Shown: piece after piece, positions 4,907-51,017 of the stretch
Layout: every line of letters starts with the position of its first letter
Position numbering within the stretch: position 1 is the first letter of the stretch
The notes under the pieces: model-generated
Told to the model about the DNA's origin: nothing
Seen by the model: only the letters and a program-made list of their open reading frames with translations
The model's database searches: none
Source of the DNA: a virus
Taxonomy: Duplodnaviria; Caudoviricetes
Reading direction: 5' to 3' (one strand)
IMG/VR virus record: IMGVR_UViG_2526164702_000004
Span: 1-64,000 of that record
Length of the DNA stretch: 64,000 nt
Program-made: the position numbers and the translations under genes

Positions 4907-4907
4907 G

Positions 4908-6707
4908 TTATGCCTTACCTCTTAATGGTTTTAAAGAAAGAATGTAAAAAATGAAATTTAAAGGAGTGGTAACGTTTCCTTCGAGATCCAAGAAAGACCA
5001 AGTATCCCCTTCAACTTGAATGGAGAAATTTTTCTTGTATGCCTCAACGCCGAGAGCTGCAGAACCAACAAGGTATCCTTGTTGAACAAAATACTCTAAT
5101 TTTCCTTCAATATAGTTGAGAACGTCCGGAACACGAACTCCCGAAACTGGAGAGGAATCATCGACCATACTTTGACCAATAAATTTCGCGTTAAAACCAA
5201 CTCTAAGTTCACGTACCATTGTAAGTGCAGTCGCAACAGATGACTTTTCGTTTAAGATCAAATCATCTCTTCTCTCGGTAGTAACAGACCTGGCGATTAC
5301 CCATGAGTTATCAGAAGGTTTTTGATCTAAAATCAAAGTACCAGCTCTGATACAAGCATCCCTAACAGCCGGATCCCGAGAAATATATTCTGCACTTTTA
5401 AGTACATTCAGTGCCTTCCAGGTAGGCGAAATTCTTGGAGAGTTAGAAGCGGAAATTGCATTATCTATTACAGAAAGATAATATCCAGGAAACGTTTGTT
5501 CTACTCCATTTATATCAAAATCACGGAATGATTCCAAACCATAGGTCATCCAATACGAACCAAGTGTTCGACCTTCATCTTGTCTTTGTGGAACAGGTAT
5601 GATTCCATCTGCACCACAACCTCCGACCGTTTCCGATCCTGTTTCGGGTGAGTTCATATCAAAACACACTTGTTTAAAATATGTTTTGTCAGAAAGGGTG
5701 GAAGAGAGAATGTTTCGGTATAAACCAGAGATTTTTTTTGAGAAAGTAATTGCGTCTTTTAAATCTGTAGACACAGGAGTGCCAGTAAGCCCACCTTGAG
5801 TAAGATACTTAAACATCGTTGATCCAGCGAATGGCTTACGGACTGTCCCCAAAACAACTTCACCAAGACCTGTGCCTTCGATAAAATTTTGTTCCATAAA
5901 CAAATCAGCATAAATCGAAACATTCGTTGGAGCTTTTACTGAAATCGATTCGGAAGCTTCAACATGATCAAGATTTGCAACCAAAAATTCAGGAGATTCA
6001 AAAAGCGTCGCAACGTAACCAACCTGTGAATTGATTTGATCTACAACTTCGCCGATCGTAGGATAATCAGCAAATTTGATTACGATTGATTGAGAATTAT
6101 CTGAAGCACCAGTTAAAGTTACTTTTAGATTTATAGCATCGATTTCTAGAAGTGCAGAAGCACCGTTACCAATATAAGAAATTGTGAAAACAACCTTCTC
6201 CAATCTCCTTGAAGTCAGAATACCTTGATCATTACCGATTTGGATTGTTTTGTCTGTGGAGTTTTTAAAGAATCGAACCTTTTTACCATTTGGCCCAGGT
6301 ATTGGATAGGAAATCCTATGAGTTTGACTAGTTTTTAAAGTAGTGAAGTCATTAAACGCCTTTGTATTAGGACAGATATTTATAAATTTAATAAGTTGCG
6401 GACCTTGAGCAAGATTATCTTCGATTGAGGGGAAAGTAGCAAACTTGATTGCTTGAAGTAATTCACCACTTCCTAATATACTCTTTGCCTGATTGTAACC
6501 ACTTACTCCACCTGATATAGTATAGAATCGCTGATCATCTCTAAGAGACGACTCATTGAAACAAACTCCATTTGCGGCTTTACCAATAAGCACAAGAGTA
6601 AATTTGTCAGTTCCAGCACCTGGATTAGCACCAATACTTTGAAACTTACCACGAGCTCCTGGAGCAACGTAAGCTCTTCCTTGAAATTCGCTCCCTGAAG
6701 TTCCCAT
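4908..6707 (-). CDS. contractile tail sheath protein
   Basis: 599 aa; C-terminal sheath-like region (VIARSVTT...EKSSVATA...FIFYILSL); context. Confidence 0.85.
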   Translation of the reverse strand: MGTSGSEFQGRAYVAPGARGKFQSIGANPGAGTDKFTLVLIGKAANGVCFNESSLRDDQRFYTISGGVSGYNQAKSILGSGELLQAIKFATFPSIEDNLAQGPQLIKFINICPNTKAFNDFTTLKTSQTHRISYPIPGPNGKKVRFFKNSTDKTIQIGNDQGILTSRRLEKVVFTISYIGNGASALLEIDAINLKVTLTGASDNSQSIVIKFADYPTIGEVVDQINSQVGYVATLFESPEFLVANLDHVEASESISVKAPTNVSIYADLFMEQNFIEGTGLGEVVLGTVRKPFAGSTMFKYLTQGGLTGTPVSTDLKDAITFSKKISGLYRNILSSTLSDKTYFKQVCFDMNSPETGSETVGGCGADGIIPVPQRQDEGRTLGSYWMTYGLESFRDFDINGVEQTFPGYYLSVIDNAISASNSPRISPTWKALNVLKSAEYISRDPAVRDACIRAGTLILDQKPSDNSWVIARSVTTERRDDLILNEKSSVATALTMVRELRVGFNAKFIGQSMVDDSSPVSGVRVPDVLNYIEGKLEYFVQQGYLVGSAALGVEAYKKNFSIQVEGDTWSFLDLEGNVTTPLNFIFYILSLKPLRGKA

Positions 6708-45761: not shown

Positions 45762-46157
45762 CTACTTTAAAAACGTTTCGATAATCGTCTTAATTTTCTT
45801 TAAGTCTTCTGGCTGTATCTTTACAAGTATCTCTGCAATCTCGCATAATGTAGGATTATTAATAATCTTACGGGATAGTATGATCCCTTTTTCAATCAGT
45901 TCTTTTTCTGCTTCTGTTACATTCAAAGGAGTTGTATTCTTTTCGGGTCCTATTCCTTTGTGTGTCCACTCTTTTCTAAATCCATACTTTAGTTCGATTA
46001 CGATAGTAATACGATCAGTCAAATCCCGTTTATTATTCTCGAGCTGACTTAAGAGCTCCTGACTGATTCCAATCGATTTCGCAAATTCGTCCTGGCTGAT
46101 TTTTTGCCCGGTTCCCTCTGTTCGTATGTATTTGATTCTTTCGCCTGGTGTGTTCAA
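45762..46157 (-). CDS. CI-like repressor
   Basis: ISQDEFAKSIGISQELLSQLENNKR; divergent from cro. Confidence 0.85.
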   Translation of the reverse strand: MNTPGERIKYIRTEGTGQKISQDEFAKSIGISQELLSQLENNKRDLTDRITIVIELKYGFRKEWTHKGIGPEKNTTPLNVTEAEKELIEKGIILSRKIINNPTLCEIAEILVKIQPEDLKKIKTIIETFLK

Positions 46158-46259: not shown

Positions 46260-46505
46260 TTGAGCGTCGCAAAAAATCAAGGGCGAATTTGGCCCAAAGG
46301 TGTTATGTCCCGTGAAGAGATTAAGACGGAGCTGCAGTTTTTAAATAAAACTTATGATGTGATTTCTCACGAAACAGGAATGTCGTACGACGTTGTCCGC
46401 GGAACGATTGCGGGAAGAAAACGAAATGCCGTCGTTCTTCAGTATCTTACGAATCTTGGCATCGATCACGGAAGAACCCCAAGCCCGAGCCGCAAGGCAA
46501 GCTAA
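46260..46505 (+). CDS. Cro-like HTH protein
   Basis: ISHETGMSYDVVRGTIAG; divergent from cI. Confidence 0.7.
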   Translation: MSVAKNQGRIWPKGVMSREEIKTELQFLNKTYDVISHETGMSYDVVRGTIAGRKRNAVVLQYLTNLGIDHGRTPSPSRKAS

Positions 46506-46560: not shown

Positions 46561-46737
46561 ATGGAAAATTCGCAGAACAGAGAGATAGAAAAAATTGAAT
46601 ACTTTTGGCAGTACAACAAGCACGGAATACAGCGGCCATTGTGTAGGGTACTGGCATTGTATCAGTGTGCTTATCTTCGGTACATGATCGATTGGTTCAG
46701 GCCGCTGGAAGTAAGAGAGAAAGTAGTAAGGACTTGA
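46561..46737 (+). CDS. small hypothetical early protein
   Basis: GAGG SD before ATG 46561; its stop overlaps the TTG of the first bridging ORF. Confidence 0.5.
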   Translation: MENSQNREIEKIEYFWQYNKHGIQRPLCRVLALYQCAYLRYMIDWFRPLEVREKVVRT

Positions 46738-46776
46738 GAGATTTACGGGATATAGCAAAGATGGAATTGAGAGATG
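46725..46776 (+). repeat. 52-bp leader, exact copy at 47121-47172
   Basis: agtaaggacttgagagatttacgggatatagcaaagatggaattgagagatg. Confidence 0.92.
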
Positions 46777-47031
46777 GCAATAGAAAAGAAATTGATAACG
46801 GAAGCAATAAAGCGACGTCGTCAAAATATGGACACAGAGGCGGCGGATCGAGAAATGCTTATTCAGTATATTCGTCAATTCGTGGATTCGCAACGTGGGA
46901 ATCAAAAACTTTTAGCCGAAGCAAGCTCTATTCCTCAGAACAAAATATCCAGTTTAATACGGGAGCGCAGCTTTTCACCCGGAATGGATACGATCATAAA
47001 GCTTGCCGAAACAATACAAAATATCCAGTAA
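46774..47031 (+). CDS. array HTH 1 (helix QNKISS)
   Basis: RGNQKLLAEASSIPQNKISSLIR..SPGM. Confidence 0.85.
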   Translation: MAIEKKLITEAIKRRRQNMDTEAADREMLIQYIRQFVDSQRGNQKLLAEASSIPQNKISSLIRERSFSPGMDTIIKLAETIQNIQ

Positions 47032-47073
47032 GTGGATATTATTTACTTGACTTATATCCATCTTGTGGATATT
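47020..47073 (+). promoter_or_regulatory. operator pair/promoter after HTH1: ATATCCA-N5-TGGATAT x2
   Basis: Sites 33 bp apart; TTGACT at 47047. Confidence 0.85.
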
Positions 47074-47169
47074 TAATCCCTCACAACAATACCCCAACCC
47101 TTAACCAAACAAGCGAAAGAAGTAAGGACTTGAGAGATTTACGGGATATAGCAAAGATGGAATTGAGAG

Positions 47170-47412
47170 ATGAAAAATATACACGATGTGATAACCAACC
47201 GAAAGAATTGTCTTCGGTCGGAAGCCGAAGAGAAAGAATATCTAATCGATTATATCCGGAAGTTTGTCGATGCCAAAAGGGGAAATCAAAAACTTTTAGC
47301 GGAAGCAAGTGGCATTCGTCAGTCAACAATCTCCAATCTAATACGCAATGCAGGACCATCGCCCGGAATGGAAGTCATCATAGCTCTTGCCGAAGAAATT
47401 CAAAAAATTTAA
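47170..47412 (+). CDS. array HTH 2 (helix QSTISN)
   Basis: Paralogue of HTH1. Confidence 0.85.
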   Translation: MKNIHDVITNRKNCLRSEAEEKEYLIDYIRKFVDAKRGNQKLLAEASGIRQSTISNLIRNAGPSPGMEVIIALAEEIQKI

Positions 47413-47459
47413 AGTTTAAATATTTAAATCTTGACAAATATTTAATTTTTAAATATATT
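47404..47459 (+). promoter_or_regulatory. operator pair/promoter after HTH2: ATTTA-N5-TAAAT x2
   Basis: TTGACA 47431-N17-TATATT 47454. Confidence 0.85.
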
Positions 47460-47465
47460 CCCCAC

Positions 47466-47576
47466 AACAATACCCCGATCCTTAACCAAAATATGGCCGC
47501 ATCTTTGTGCGCTCATGCAGTGTGAACTTTGTGTTGAGAGATTTAATGAGTGTGATAACAATGGAATTAAGAGATG
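47466..47576 (+). repeat. ~110-bp cassette leader; near-identical copies at ~47882-47992 and ~48307-48417
   Basis: caataccccgatccttaaccaaaatatggccgc...ggaatt(a/g)agagATG. Confidence 0.92.
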
Positions 47577-47831
47577 GCCACGAAAAAAGAAATGATCGAT
47601 CAGGCAATAGAACGCCGACAGCACTGTTTGAATACAAGCGAATCGGATCGTGCGCTTATGATAGAATATATTCGGGAATTTGTAGAACTGAAACGCGGAA
47701 ATCAAATTCTACTCGCACGGGAGAGTGGAATTCCTCAGTCCAAGATTTCGAATCTTCTCAATGGAACCGGCACATCTGCAGGAATGGAGACGTTGGTAAT
47801 CCTCGCACTTGCTGTAAAAAATATAACGTAG
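47574..47831 (+). CDS. array HTH 3 (helix QSKISN)
   Basis: Paralogue. Confidence 0.85.
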   Translation: MATKKEMIDQAIERRQHCLNTSESDRALMIEYIREFVELKRGNQILLARESGIPQSKISNLLNGTGTSAGMETLVILALAVKNIT

Positions 47832-47875
47832 CGTTATGTTTTTGCCTTGACAAATATATCGCTCAGGTATATATT
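47820..47875 (+). promoter_or_regulatory. operator pair/promoter after HTH3: AATATAAC-N5-GTTATGTT and AATATATC-N5-GGTATATA
   Basis: TTGACA 47847-N17-TATATT 47870. Confidence 0.8.
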
Positions 47876-47989
47876 AATCCCCACAATACCCCGATCCTTA
47901 ACCAAAATATGGCCGCATCTTTGTGCGCTCATGCAGTGTGAACTTTGTGTTGAGAGATTTAATGAGTGTGATAACAATGGAATTGAGAG

Positions 47990-48262
47990 ATGGCAAAAAA
48001 AGAAACGAAAGAGCAATCAATCGAAGAGATTATTGCACACAGGCGGAACTGTCTGGACACGGAAGAGTCAGACAAGGAAGCACTGACGGAGTACGTTCGC
48101 CAGTTTGCAAAAGCGAAGAGGGGAAACACAATTCTTCTTTCGCGCGAAAGTGGAATTCCTCAGTCCAAAATATCGAATCTATTAAACAAAACAGGATCAT
48201 CTCCTGGAATGGAAACTTTAATCATTCTTGCTCAAACTATAAAAAATATACCAACTCGGTAA
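47990..48262 (+). CDS. array HTH 4 (helix QSKISN)
   Basis: Paralogue. Confidence 0.85.
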   Translation: MAKKETKEQSIEEIIAHRRNCLDTEESDKEALTEYVRQFAKAKRGNTILLSRESGIPQSKISNLLNKTGSSPGMETLIILAQTIKNIPTR

Positions 48263-48300
48263 CATTTTTAATTGACAAATGTACCAAGCCGGTATATATT
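48245..48300 (+). promoter_or_regulatory. operator pair/promoter after HTH4: TACC-N5-GGTA x2
   Basis: TTGACA 48272-N17-TATATT 48295. Confidence 0.85.
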
Positions 48301-48414
48301 AATTCCCACAATACCCCGATCCTTAACCAAAATATGGCCGCATCTTTGTGCGCTCATGCAGTGTGAACTTTGTGTTGAGAGATTTAATGAGTGTGATAAC
48401 AATGGAATTGAGAG

Positions 48415-48678
48415 ATGGCAATAGAAAAAGAAACGATCGATCAGGCAATAGAACGCCGACAGCACTGTTTAGATACAAGCGAATCGGATCGTACACTTAT
48501 GATAGAATATATTCGGGAATTCGTAGAACTGAAGCGTGGAAACCAAAGACGTCTTGCAGAAGCAAGCAGTGTTCCGGAATCCAGAATATCCAATCTCTTA
48601 AAAAATACCGGTGTCAGTCCGGGGATAGAAATAATACTTATCCTTGCCCAAAATGCAAAAAAGTTATTATCGCAATAA
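48415..48678 (+). CDS. array HTH 5 (helix ESRISN)
   Basis: Paralogue. Confidence 0.85.
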   Translation: MAIEKETIDQAIERRQHCLDTSESDRTLMIEYIREFVELKRGNQRRLAEASSVPESRISNLLKNTGVSPGIEIILILAQNAKKLLSQ

Positions 48679-48714
48679 CTTTTTATCTTGACAAACTTAA
48701 TAAAACAATAAGTT
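48661..48714 (+). promoter_or_regulatory. operator pair/promoter after HTH5: AAGTTATT-N5-AATAACTT and AACTTAAT-N5-AATAAGTT
   Basis: TTGACA at 48688; the -10 is non-consensus. Confidence 0.8.
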
Positions 48715-48743
48715 TTATTCCTTACAATACCCCGACCAAAAAT

Positions 48744-48768
48744 AAAAAAGCCCGGCGGCAACCGGGCT
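48744..48768 (-). terminator. intrinsic terminator oriented against the operon
   Basis: A6 followed by GCCCGG-N6-CCGGGC on the + strand. Confidence 0.55.
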
Positions 48769-48851
48769 CCGAGGTAAACTTACGTTTAACACCTAAGCGT
48801 TTTTTATCTCCTCTTTTATTTGCGGTCAACCAAAAAATTTAGGAGATACCT

Positions 48852-49046
48852 ATGACCCCAAGATACTACCTGTCAGACCGTGCCCGGATTGCGTTTGAAT
48901 GTTTCGAGATCCGCAACGGATACAAACCAAACCACAAAGAGCAAGTTGAGATATTGCGAAACGAAGGGTTTAACCCGGCAACAATTGCTTTTTTTATGCA
49001 ATGTGTTCACACAACTCCCAGGCATTCCAGTGAGGTGTTCGCATGA
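48852..49046 (+). CDS. small hypothetical early protein
   Basis: AGGAGA SD; 64 aa. Confidence 0.6.
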   Translation: MTPRYYLSDRARIAFECFEIRNGYKPNHKEQVEILRNEGFNPATIAFFMQCVHTTPRHSSEVFA

Positions 49047-49091
49047 AGGCATTGATAAAAATCAAACAAAGTCCGATAATGGATAGGAGAC

Positions 49092-49352
49092 ATGTCGAAG
49101 AAAGAGACGATAAAACAAATTATCGAACACAGACGGAAGTGTGTGGATACAGAAGAGTCAGACAAGGAAGCGCTGACAGAATATATTCGGGAATTTGCAA
49201 AAGCGAAGAGGGGAAATACAATTCTTCTTTCGCGCGAGAGTGGAGTTCCGGATGCCAAAATCTCAAACCTGTTAAATCAAAGTGGATTCCCTCCAGGAAT
49301 GGAAATAATTTTAAAGCTTGCCGAAACAATACAAAAACTACAAAATCTATAG
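49092..49352 (+). CDS. array HTH 6 (helix DAKISN)
   Basis: Paralogue; AGGAGA SD. Confidence 0.85.
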   Translation: MSKKETIKQIIEHRRKCVDTEESDKEALTEYIREFAKAKRGNTILLSRESGVPDAKISNLLNQSGFPPGMEIILKLAETIQKLQNL

Positions 49353-49388
49353 ATTTAGTCCTTGACAATTCTACAGAAACTATAGCTT
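49335..49388 (+). promoter_or_regulatory. operator pair/promoter after HTH6: CTACA-N5-TATAG x2
   Basis: TTGACA at 49362; 33-bp spacing. Confidence 0.8.
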
Positions 49389-49391
49389 ATA

Positions 49392-49593
49392 GCACCTCAT
49401 ACAACTTAGGAGGTGCTATATGAAACAGTTGAGTGAATCAACTCAGTTTCCGATAATGGATGAGAGACATGTCGAAGAAAGAGACGATAAAACAAATTAT
49501 CGAACACAGACGGAAGTGTGTGGATTCGGAGCAAGAACACCGCGAAGCGTTAATAGAATACATTCGAGAGTTTGTGCGGGCGAAACGCGGGAA
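49392..49593 (+). repeat. ~200-bp leader plus 5' HTH repeat, copy 377 bp downstream; 25-bp core also at 50146
   Basis: gcacctcatacaacttaggaggtgc... direct comparison. Confidence 0.9.
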
Positions 49594-49729
49594 CACAGCT
49601 TTACTTACTCAACAAACCGGCATTCCCGGATCACGAATATCCCATCTTGTAAACAACACAGGCCGTCCTCCTGGAATGGATGGACTCCTAACTTTAGCCG
49701 AAGCAATAACAAAACTGCACAAAGTGTAA
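49469..49729 (+). CDS. array HTH 7 (helix GSRISH)
   Basis: Paralogue; start set at MSKK by analogy with HTH6. Confidence 0.85.
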   Translation: MSKKETIKQIIEHRRKCVDSEQEHREALIEYIREFVRAKRGNTALLTQQTGIPGSRISHLVNNTGRPPGMDGLLTLAEAITKLHKV

Positions 49730-49765
49730 ATTTATTCCTTGACAATGTTGCACATTGTGCAACAT
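49712..49765 (+). promoter_or_regulatory. operator pair/promoter after HTH7: TGCA-N5-TG(C/T)A
   Basis: Perfect ATGTTGCA-N5-TGCAACAT; TTGACA at 49739. Confidence 0.85.
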
Positions 49766-49845
49766 TCTGCACCTCATACAACTTAGGAGGTGCTATATGA
49801 AACAGTTGAGTGAATCAACTCAGTTTCCGATAATGGATGAGAGAC

Positions 49846-50106
49846 ATGTCGAAGAAAGAGACGATAAAACAAATTATCGAACACAGACGGAAGTGTGTGG
49901 ATTCGGAGCAAGAACACCGCGAAGCGTTAATAGAATACATTCGAGAGTTTGTAGAACAGAAACGAGGAAACACAGTTCTTCTTTCACAACAAACAGGAAT
50001 TCCAGTTTCGCGTATCTCCAATCTGGTCAACAACTCTGGCCGACCTCCGGGCATGGACGGACTTCTAACGCTTGCGGAGGTAATTCAAAAAGTACACAAT
50101 GTTTAG
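49846..50106 (+). CDS. array HTH 8 (helix VSRISN)
   Basis: Paralogue; 5' half identical to HTH7. Confidence 0.85.
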   Translation: MSKKETIKQIIEHRRKCVDSEQEHREALIEYIREFVEQKRGNTVLLSQQTGIPVSRISNLVNNSGRPPGMDGLLTLAEVIQKVHNV

Positions 50107-50142
50107 ATTTATTTATTGACAAAAATAAACATTGTGTAGATA
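50089..50142 (+). promoter_or_regulatory. operator pair/promoter after HTH8: consensus TACA-N5-TGTA
   Basis: TTGACA at 50116; one mismatch per site. Confidence 0.7.
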
Positions 50143-50173
50143 TTCGCACCTCATACAACTTAGGAGGTGCAGC

Positions 50174-50311
50174 GTGAACCCCGACACAGACCACCAAATG
50201 GACGCACTACGTAATATCGTCCAACTATCTCAAGACGTGCAGGCTGTCCGTAACTGGATTGATGCGAGTGAGCAAATTGCAGAAACCCCGTTAACCGAGG
50301 TGGAGCAATGA
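50174..50311 (+). CDS. small hypothetical early protein (45 aa)
   Basis: AGGAGG SD, GTG start; stop-start overlaps at both ends. Confidence 0.55.
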   Translation: MNPDTDHQMDALRNIVQLSQDVQAVRNWIDASEQIAETPLTEVEQ

Positions 50312-50356
50312 ATTGCTTGAGTAAAATCTTAGAAATTCCGAAAATAGGAATAACAC

Positions 50357-50635
50357 ATGTCTTTAACAGACGAACAAATAAAAAAGACGATTCCCGCAAT
50401 TATTCGTCAAAGACGAGAGAGTATCTCAAGAGAAGACATCGACAAACAGATGTTAGTCGATTATATCCGATACTTTGTCAATTTAAAACGTGGAAATGCG
50501 GCTCTTCTTGTAAAGGAGACAAAATTTCCTTCTGGAAATTTATCTCGTCTTATTTCCGGCGAGGGTGCTCAACCGTCCTTCGAGCGAATTCTTTCTATCG
50601 CCGAAACTGTTCAAATTCTGCTAAAAAAGCAGTAA
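50357..50635 (+). CDS. array HTH 9 (helix SGNLSR, most divergent)
   Basis: LVDYIRYFVNLKRGNAALL; AGGA SD. Confidence 0.8.
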   Translation: MSLTDEQIKKTIPAIIRQRRESISREDIDKQMLVDYIRYFVNLKRGNAALLVKETKFPSGNLSRLISGEGAQPSFERILSIAETVQILLKKQ

Positions 50636-50671
50636 TAATTCTTGACAAAAAACCTTCTATAATAGCAGTTT
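50615..50671 (+). promoter_or_regulatory. operator pair/promoter after HTH9: CT(G/T)CT-N5-AGCAG
   Basis: TTGACA at 50642; spacing is 36 bp rather than 33. Confidence 0.55.
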
Positions 50672-50699
50672 TCTTTTGCTGCTTTAAGGAGGCATTGTC

Positions 50700-51017
50700 A
50701 TGACATTCAAAGAAGATCAGCAAATGAGCCAGTTAAAAAAACTCATTAGTGAGTCCTCGATAAGCTTGTTGTCTTTGTCGGTTAACGGGATCTCACTTGA
50801 TGACGTTATGCGCGTGGAAAAACAAAAACAGAACGTAAAAGAATCTCGTGCCCGTCTCCGTGCTTTGTTTGTGAGTTACAGACAGACAATCAGGTATCTC
50901 AAAGGGCAAGTCAAAGAGCGTGATGAGGCACTCATGGTGCTCCGTGCGGAGACGGATGCAATGGCGGACGTGATTACGGACATCAAAAAATCGTACGGCT
51001 TCAAGGCGGTGGTGTGA
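50700..51017 (+). CDS. coiled-coil hypothetical protein
   Basis: AAGGAGG SD. Confidence 0.6.
   Translation: MTFKEDQQMSQLKKLISESSISLLSLSVNGISLDDVMRVEKQKQNVKESRARLRALFVSYRQTIRYLKGQVKERDEALMVLRAETDAMADVITDIKKSYGFKAVV

Follow-up and report, generated by a model that had tools for sequence, protein, structure and literature searches.

The DNA studied here, referred to as the window, comprises the first 64 kb of the 76,984-bp IMG/VR virus record IMGVR_UViG_2526164702_000004, and all coordinates refer to this window. It belongs to a plasmid prophage of the lcp3-like kind, complete and 77 kb in length, from pathogenic Leptospira; lcp3 itself is described in PMC4338851 as a siphovirus-like, mitomycin-C-inducible plasmid prophage of L. 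interrogans 56609. The window carries a tandem array of small genes encoding helix-turn-helix (HTH) proteins, HTH1 to HTH9, each followed by a predicted promoter with two palindromic operators (Table 1), and we found that the recognition helix of each protein covaries with the operators downstream of its own gene. Gene plus downstream operator-promoter is called a cassette in the following. All nine HTH genes reported by the initial annotation were recovered; they are arranged head to tail on the plus strand, comprise 80–92 codons and are paralogous. HTH3, HTH7 and HTH9 matched phrog_2136, a family of unknown function, over almost its full length (84–88 of 89 profile positions). In a Pfam search, HTH2 scored above the 23-bit cut-off of HTH_3 (PF01381), HTH1, 3, 4, 5 and 8 scored below it at 15–22 bits, and HTH6, 7 and 9 gave no HTH_3 row. 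A profile of 36 family members matched XRE proteins of the PDB weakly (3bs3, E = 0.007; SinR, E = 0.06). HTH7 was modelled with AlphaFold2 on the basis of 36 family members; the model, with a predicted local distance difference test score (pLDDT) of 85.8, has a long N-terminal helix (residues 6–41), helix 2 (45–53), the recognition helix (57–65, GSRISHLVN) and a C-terminal helix (73–88). The top Foldseek matches of this model were all of the XRE type, i.e. Aca11 (9lx2, probability 0.97), SinR, the N-terminal domain of AcrIIA15, C.Esp1396I (3clc), P22 c2 and 434, every one with an E-value above 0.1. Judged by profile matches and predicted fold, HTH1 to HTH9 are most likely small XRE/Cro-type HTH proteins.

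The 3′ end of each HTH gene forms a 17-bp palindrome, O1, which spans the stop codon and is followed by a near-invariant −35 box, TTGACA. A second copy of the palindrome, O2, lies inside the spacer between the −35 and −10 boxes. The register was found by an unbiased search for shared half-sites: the dyads of O1 and O2 are located at −16.5 and +16.5 bp from the first T of TTGAC and are thus 33 bp apart in essentially all cassette types; in the LPTSTISRIV and L017 types the dyad register is one base off. The arms of the predicted 17-bp sites are 5–6 bp long with their centres 10–11 bp apart. An information profile over 36 cassette types showed a nearly invariant −35 box and a conserved T at base 3 of the half-site, with the other core bases highly variable. 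Bases 1 and 2 are partly fixed in the right arm of O2, because its outer TA overlaps the −10 box, and the left arm of O1 encodes the last few residues of each HTH protein. The distance from stop codon to TTGAC is a multiple of three in every cassette (3 to 18 nt), so that the stop is shifted only in frame and the operator register stays fixed. For HTH1 to HTH8, the two downstream operators are the sole 14/14 matches to the respective half-site set in the 76,984-bp genome, and matches with one mismatch are no commoner in the genome than in shuffled sequence.

Table 1 Features of the HTH array and its borders in the window; promoters, operators and their targets are predictions
Feature	Position	Strand	Remarks
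HTH1	46774..47031	+	helix QNKISSLIRE; phrog_2136 family, hmmsearch 4.6e-41
HTH2	47170..47412	+	helix QSTISNLIRN; Pfam HTH_3 30.4 bits
HTH3	47574..47831	+	helix QSKISNLLNGTGT; phrog_2136 E=1.9e-38
HTH4	47990..48262	+	helix QSKISNLLNKTGS; family alignment and profile
HTH5	48415..48678	+	helix ESRISNLLKN; family alignment and profile
HTH6	49092..49352	+	helix DAKISNLLNQ; family alignment and profile
HTH7	49460..49729	+	helix GSRISHLVNN; phrog_2136 E=1e-39; AlphaFold2 pLDDT 85.8
HTH8	49837..50106	+	helix VSRISNLVNN; family alignment and profile
HTH9	50357..50635	+	helix SGNLSRLISG; phrog_2136 E=1.1e-30
HTH1 promoter	47022..47075	+	O1 47022-47038; -35 TTGACT (47047); O2 47055-47071; -10 TATTTA; half-site TATCCA
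HTH2 promoter	47406..47459	+	O1 47406-47422; -35 TTGACA (47431); O2 47439-47455; -10 TATATT; half-site TATTTAA; 11/12 promoter match
HTH3 promoter	47822..47875	+	O1 47822-47838; -35 (47847); O2 47855-47871; -10 TATATT; half-site TATA[A/T/C]CG
HTH4 promoter	48247..48300	+	O1 48247-48263; -35 (48272); O2 48280-48296; -10 TATATT; half-site T[A/G]TACC
HTH5 promoter	48663..48716	+	O1 48663-48679; -35 (48688); O2 48696-48712; half-site [G/C]TTATT; target: gene 48852-49046, then HTH6
HTH6 promoter	49337..49390	+	O1 49337-49353; -35 (49362); O2 49370-49386; half-site CTA[C/T]AG
HTH7 promoter	49714..49767	+	O1 49714-49730; -35 (49739); O2 49747-49763; half-site TTGCACA
HTH8 promoter	50091..50144	+	O1 50091-50107; -35 (50116); O2 50124-50140; -10 GATATT; half-site TA[A/C]ACA; target: 45-codon ORF 50174-50311
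HTH9 promoter	50617..50670	+	O1 50617-50633 (CTGCT N5 AGCAG); -35 (50642); degenerate O2 50650-50666; target: early genes from 50700 (phrog_6874, phrog_19042, Gam-like)
Bridge ORF, +2 frame (HTH6–9)	49043-49423	+	ATGA/GTGA stop-start overlaps
Bridge ORF, +2 frame (HTH6–9)	49420-49800	+	ATGA/GTGA stop-start overlaps
Bridge ORF, +2 frame (HTH6–9)	49797-50177	+	ATGA/GTGA stop-start overlaps
Bridge ORF, +2 frame (HTH6–9)	50174-50311	+	ATGA/GTGA stop-start overlaps
Bridge ORF, +2 frame (HTH6–9)	50308-50703	+	ATGA/GTGA stop-start overlaps
cI/ImmR-like HTH repressor	45762..46157	-	Pfam HTH_3 29.3 bits, HTH_19; PHROG transcriptional regulator/repressor families
Small gene in cro position, first in rightward operon	46260..46505	+	phrog_7494 E=6.6e-41
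Conserved small ORF between cro-position gene and HTH1	46561..46737	+	no Pfam match
Non-HTH cargo gene between cassettes 5 and 6	48852..49046	+	phrog_7667 E=2.9e-47

The comparison with relatives was based on 27 replicons, i.e. the window, 18 related IMG/VR contigs and eight PLSDB plasmids. These carry arrays of one to nine cassettes (90 cassette instances in the window and the 18 IMG/VR contigs) with 38 helix types and 30 distinct consensus half-sites. Complete gene-plus-operator modules are repeated head to tail, their number and order vary between replicons, and each array of N genes has N downstream promoters. The proposal that helix and downstream operator travel as one unit held throughout: each helix type keeps one downstream operator pair despite varied neighbours, the number of distinct cassette types found upstream being seven for LGTISTITT, five for GSRISH and four each for VSRISN, SGNLSR and VPVISN. 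In all 16 complete arrays, i.e. those whose left flank is intact, the cro-position gene and the small conserved open reading frame (ORF) come before the first HTH gene, and there is no operator-promoter ahead of it; in the window, none is present between ORF 46561..46737 and HTH1. An operator-promoter does follow every last gene, with non-HTH genes downstream of it, and the same was found in the one-cassette elements L019, pLiSL11 and L. mayottensis p2. Half-sites within one array differ at two or more of six core bases. The layout also occurs in more distant, single-copy metagenome relatives, in which the gene ends in or at TTGACA, a palindrome lies in the spacer and ERF/SSB genes are next (L043, 1340-1720, GTAAAC..GTTTAC; L046, 198-600, TACACCA..TGGTGTA; one spacer palindrome each, and in L043 an O1 is not evident). 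The logic of a gene followed by its putative target promoter should therefore be older than the Leptospira arrays.

Within the window, the relation between helix and arms was largely as first described. The four helices starting with Gln all have TAT at bases 1–3 of their half-sites, and the E-, D-, G- and V-initiated helices, like the S-initiated one, have arms without it. HTH3 and HTH4 indeed share QSKISNLLN, and their upstream half-sites differ (TATTTAA and TATAnCG); their downstream half-sites are alike without being identical. Covariation analysis over the homologous cassettes, which the initial annotation had suggested as a check, yielded residue-base rules against the downstream sites only. 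Mutual information between helix position 6 (H6) and base 4 amounted to 1.18 bits downstream versus 0.35 bits upstream, and that between helix position 1 (H1) and base 2 to 1.06 versus 0.50 bits. At H6, His goes with G at base 4 in seven of eight types, representing at least four unrelated helix contexts, and Asn goes with A in 16 of 18; Gln is found with A, Ser with C, Thr with T and, in part, Arg with G. This rule fits 32 of 36 types downstream, but only 1 of 25 upstream junctions at which the neighbour is predicted to differ. Two helix types from plasmids obtained after the rule had been fixed both fit it: GSRISN of pLiSL34 has TA[T/A/C]ACA where GSRISH has TGCACA, and NAKISNLLNNSGN has the half-site TCTACT. 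At H1, Gln goes with A at base 2 in nine of ten types and in none of the 26 others (Fisher p = 1e-7). The first helix residue thus tracks an outer operator base, as had been expected from known phage repressors, and Gln at H1 with A at +2 is one of three covariations reported for the Cro family (PMC6649833).

The best explanation of these data, and one which we consider likely, is that each protein forms a dimer, represses the promoter joined to the 3′ end of its own gene and so acts on the next transcription unit, as was suspected from the start. That each protein binds its own downstream sites is likely; that it represses the promoter there is fairly likely. The protein would bind as a dimer to O1 (around −52) and O2 (around −19) on either side of the −35 box of a sigma-70-type promoter. 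The two sites would be three helical turns apart, and two dimers, possibly cooperating over the 33-bp spacing, would clamp the −35 box. An O2 in a consensus 17-bp spacer together with an O1 at around −52 is a geometry that implies repression. Control would be of the feed-forward type, the target being either the HTH gene that follows or a group of early phage genes. The specificity unit would be a contiguous stretch of DNA made up of helix 2, the recognition helix, the C-terminus, O1, the −35 box and O2, within which protein and site would have co-evolved.

Several observations weigh against this explanation. Several of the −10 boxes are weak, and O2 of cassette 9 is degenerate. Because each gene physically overlaps its downstream sites, part of the linkage is expected from proximity alone. 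The H6/base-4 rule was, apart from the two hold-out types, derived on the data on which it is scored, and on a tree built without the helix columns there are only about five changes per trait, giving two to five independent contrasts, none of them contrary, which are too few for a significant sign test. At base 4, the RQSTISN types (T or C) and LDPVVIVH (A) are exceptions, as is QSKISN[M/F]LNGTGT (T) at base 2; since TA is kept at bases 5–6, the RQSTISN proteins perhaps dock two bases further in. The helix QSKISNLLN / QSKISNMLN comes with five different inner half-sites, and residues outside the helix must therefore also set specificity; indeed, the cores TAAC/TATC, TACC, TACT or TATC track the residues just past the helix (NGTGT, NKTGS/T, NKTGN). 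Finally, a strict chain of repressors predicts an effect of array-length parity, yet arrays of one to nine occur, and since a scan found no terminators between the cassettes, read-through may bypass repressed promoters.

Two other accounts of the downstream association were weighed. C-proteins, Aca proteins and many XRE regulators usually control their own genes, and by this logic each HTH protein would bind the operators upstream of its gene, the downstream association being a by-product of array order. The mutual information left upstream (0.60 bits for H1 and base 4) speaks for such autoregulation; it is accounted for by the partial conservation of array order. We regard autoregulation as very improbable, since the first genes of all 16 complete arrays lack an operator-promoter before them, the last genes and single-cassette genes always have one behind them, a single helix type is found behind up to seven upstream operator types, and the residue-base rule fails at all but one of the 25 informative upstream junctions. 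Control from the upstream promoter was rejected on the data on first genes and upstream junctions. The other account accepts the linkage and denies recognition: the palindromes would be bound by another factor or would act as RNA or DNA hairpins, for instance at the 3′ end or as terminators. That O1 lies over the stop codon and is inseparable from the gene, that the stems could fold in RNA and that independent co-transitions are few would agree with it. A terminator role was rejected on account of the AT-rich stems and the negative terminator scan, and the repetition of the palindrome in the promoter spacer, at a fixed 33 bp and beyond an invariant −35 box, is the geometry of an operator and not of a terminator. 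Moreover, the pairings make chemical sense (His/Arg with G, Asn/Gln with A), recur in unrelated helix backgrounds and held in the two hold-outs, and all four half-sites change together between close variants. Linkage without recognition is thus improbable.

What the array as a whole is for can be seen in two ways, which are compatible with each other and are the two likeliest roles. As a stack of immunity or compatibility modules, its private repressor/promoter pairs, collected from related prophage-plasmids, would silence the corresponding early promoters in relatives that enter the cell or already share it, and diversifying selection would drive new helix/operator pairs. We put this forward tentatively, as possible but not as the expected outcome. 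It agrees with hypervariable specificity units between conserved flanks, with the shuffling of cassette content among replicons that have an identical cI-like repressor, with 30 distinct half-sites that differ at two or more of six core bases within an array, and with the presence of several such plasmids per Leptospira strain stated in the main text of PMC4338851; read-through from upstream promoters, which would bypass one silenced internal promoter, speaks against it. In the other role, which we likewise regard as possible but slightly less so, the internal promoters would fire upon entry into a repressor-free cell or upon induction and then be closed by the repressor whose gene lies just before them, so that early genes would be expressed in a pulse and thereafter at a low steady-state level. 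Such a burst or timing device would fit a repressor gene placed ahead of the promoter under its control and transcribed in the direction of that promoter, a cassette in front of every non-HTH early block (48852, 50174 and 50700 onwards) and the same layout ahead of ERF/SSB genes in distant single-copy relatives; in addition, after treatment with mitomycin C the genes of lcp3 become active at differing times, according to PMC4338851. The diversity of the cassettes and the cassettes without cargo would be left unexplained, and a single repressor with repeated operators would suffice for this purpose.

The arrays are recombination mosaics, and the pattern keeps to the unit of helix plus downstream operators. 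HTH7 and HTH8 had been described as identical over leader and N-terminal half and as diverging only from the helix onwards. The identity was verified, the first 185 nt (leader plus 38–39 codons) being 100% identical except for the first base of the alignment, but the point of divergence lies 17 codons before the recognition helix and not at the helix; from there, identity is about 70% through the operators. HTH3 and HTH5 have leader and N-terminal half in common, and HTH3 and HTH4 the leader and the codons of the recognition helix. A natural helix swap is present in a gene of contig L013, which combines an HTH7-like helix 2 (TALLTQQ) with the recognition helix and the operators of HTH8. Close variants change all four half-sites together (TTTAA versus TCTAA, TGCACA versus TA.ACA). 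Leader and N-terminal gene half would thus be homogenised between cassettes and serve as recombination sites, at which new specificity units could be inserted, lost or reordered to give arrays of one to nine or more. One contig (L015, 2531839056_000010, around 4907-4956) contains hybrid operators with one half like that of HTH5 (CTTATT) and one like that of HTH8 (TACACA), mirrored around the −35 box. In the gene there, the HTH5 recognition helix is combined with a C-terminal part like that of HTH7/8, and downstream of it is a gene of the HTH8 type. The arrangement was seen once and may stem from recombination, serve heterodimers or reflect dual control.

The +2 reading frame gave a further, separate signal of very high statistical strength: it contains no stop codon in any of 58 distinct HTH genes; shuffling of the codon order leads one to expect 5.6 stops per gene, with a probability of about 0.001 per gene of finding none. 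A general property of this genome was rejected as the reason, since other genes of this phage, taken as controls, have 8.4 stops per 88 codons in that frame. Beyond the HTH stop, the frame remains open across both operators and both promoter boxes and reaches the next leader. Besides the bridge ORFs over HTH6 to HTH9, similar open +2 frames cover HTH1 to HTH5 (46665-48842), and the chain of ATGA/GTGA overlaps runs from 48852 through 51017 and includes the flanking genes 48852-49046, 50174-50311 and 50700-51017. In most leaders outside type A, the +2 ORF starts at an ATG after a strong Shine-Dalgarno (SD) sequence (GAGGTG, AGGAGGTG or GGGAGGG). The products are poorly conserved, neither the bridge ORFs nor the small ORFs at 46561 and 50174 had a match in Pfam, and a folded +2 protein was rejected because the AlphaFold2 model had a pLDDT of 41. 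In pLiSL11 (L047, NZ_CP092164.1), the annotation pipeline PGAP calls a 151-codon +2 ORF (5276-5731) and omits the overprinted HTH gene (5289-5558). The distant single-copy relatives L043 and L046 do not keep the +2 frame open. What matters in the bridge ORFs is probably translation itself and not the product: they would carry ribosomes across the cassettes in a translationally coupled early operon.

Parts of this system have precedents. The fold, palindromic operators, exchangeable immunity modules and helix/half-site covariation are already known, whereas the co-directional module, in which the promoter follows the gene and O1 covers the stop codon, its stacking up to nine and the fixed geometry across about 30 specificities appear to be undescribed. 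In lambda, the half-site consensus is TATCACC, and Gln44 and Gln27 stand at helix position 1 with A at base 2. The Cro and cI proteins of lambda, 434 and P22 share with the array an HTH of the XRE/Cro-C1 type and helix positions 1 and 6 that track operator bases; the array palindromes are 17 bp long as in lambda, and the HTH1 half-site TATCCA resembles the lambda consensus. Unlike a lambdoid switch, the array has no divergent cI-OR-cro arrangement: the promoter that the protein is predicted to control follows the gene in the same orientation, and instead of three adjacent sites there are two that bracket the −35 box at 33 bp. Unlike the lambda, 434 and P22 repressors, the array proteins have an extra N-terminal helix of about 30 residues and come in tandem arrays of up to nine. 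The “evolutionary code” of the Cro family (Hall, Lefevre and Cordes 2005), in the account given in PMC6649833, is likewise a natural covariation of helix and half-site across phage relatives that includes Gln at H1 with Ade at +2. There, however, one ortholog per phage was compared, sites were inferred in varied geometries and H6 went with base pair 6, whereas the array offers paralogs in one array with a fixed geometry, in which H6 goes with base 4 and the assignment of sites is unambiguous because the site overlaps the gene.

The C proteins of restriction-modification systems and the Aca repressors, which are among the nearest folds, are small XRE-fold dimers on paired promoter palindromes, and for the array proteins a dimer is proposed as well. 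Whereas C and Aca proteins act on the promoter of the operon to which they belong, the predicted target of the array proteins is the promoter after the gene. Lambdoid imm regions resemble the array in that modules of repressor plus operator are exchanged by recombination at conserved flanks, but the array differs from such immunity modules in family and layout, with O1 over the stop codon, a depth of up to nine, a spirochaete plasmid prophage as host and overprinting in the +2 frame. Although the array replicon and lcp3 belong to the same replicon family, a term search of the main text of the lcp3 paper (PMC4338851) turned up no description of the HTH array or its operators, the single mention of helix-turn-helix being for the Rep proteins. 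Literature searches returned no description of these arrays.

As a natural experiment in protein-DNA recognition, the array is unusually clean, with dozens of paralogs on one scaffold and a shared site register, and its simple residue-base rules are directly testable, e.g. His versus Asn at H6 for G versus A at base 4. The compact repressor/promoter pairs could be of use in circuit design. To our knowledge, the regulation of genes in lcp3-type plasmid prophages is almost unstudied, and the array represents an undescribed regulatory layer in those of pathogenic Leptospira. Taking all lines together, it may be a natural library of mutually orthogonal repressor/promoter parts, with at least 30 site specificities on one scaffold and in one fixed geometry, which would be reprogrammable through one or two residues of the helix, at H1 and H6. 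The array would be doubly coded, the +2 bridge ORFs letting cassettes enter a coupled early operon without polarity, and would amount to an undescribed way to stack self-contained modules of regulated promoters (immunity modules). We judge this joint reading to fall somewhat short of an even chance; its orthogonality is suggested by half-sites that differ at two or more of six core bases within an array.

The 76,984-bp record ends in direct terminal repeats. Named homologues of the array proteins come from pathogenic Leptospira only (L. santarosai, L. noguchii and L. kirschneri), and ten Leptospira plasmids in PLSDB match the array region, the top match being CP006727 with 83% identity over 80% of the query. 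In the INPHARED phage collection, from which close records may be missing, neither protein nor DNA matches to the array were found, contig scans of genome and metagenome collections turned up no relatives, and an Rfam search gave nothing except one sub-threshold chance match. To the left, the array is bordered by the divergent regulator pair (45762-46157 on the minus and 46260-46505 on the plus strand), in which the cI/ImmR-like gene points away from the early operon, and to the right by early recombination genes (phrog_6874, phrog_19042 and Mu Gam-like). The protein encoded at 45762..46157 recurs in the plasmids pLiSL34, pLiSL5, Langkawi p2 and 782 p5, where it is annotated as a helix-turn-helix regulator. 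Some related plasmids have a gene for an ImmA/IrrE metallopeptidase about 1.6 kb upstream of the cI-like gene (L037, 3454-3948; L042, 2938-3432), which suggests that the main repressor may be under an induction switch of the ImmR/ImmA type.

In a library of 1.8 billion proteins, the family profile matched P0021 (661 aa), P0025 (361 aa), P0030 (263 aa) and P0040 (381 aa) in three to five separate stretches each; they could be fusions of several HTH proteins or arrays wrongly called as a single gene. The cassette leaders have features of their own. Directly after the −10 box of promoters 6–8, a 7-bp stem-loop, GCACCTC ... GAGGTGC (49392-49416, 49769-49793 and 50146-50170), pairs the strong SD sequence of the next ORF, and an analogous CCCTCC ... 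GGGAGGG hairpin is found in leaders of other cassette types. A transcript initiated at the promoter probably lacks the 5′ arm of this stem-loop, which would leave the SD sequence free, and read-through transcripts would carry the whole hairpin. In cassettes 1–4, the first 30–35 nt after the −10 box (47076-47110, 47457-47491, 47873-47907 and 48298-48332) are C-rich and G-poor (CCCCACAA..TACCCCGAyCCTTAACCAAAA) and look like a Rho-loading tract; the remainder of that leader is 100% identical in cassettes 3, 4 and 5. Between promoter 5 and the gene 48852-49046 lies a strong terminator-like hairpin of the minus strand (48747-48770, ten pairs plus T-run); read on the plus strand, it follows an A-run and lacks a T-run behind it, and a minus-strand gene is not evident there.

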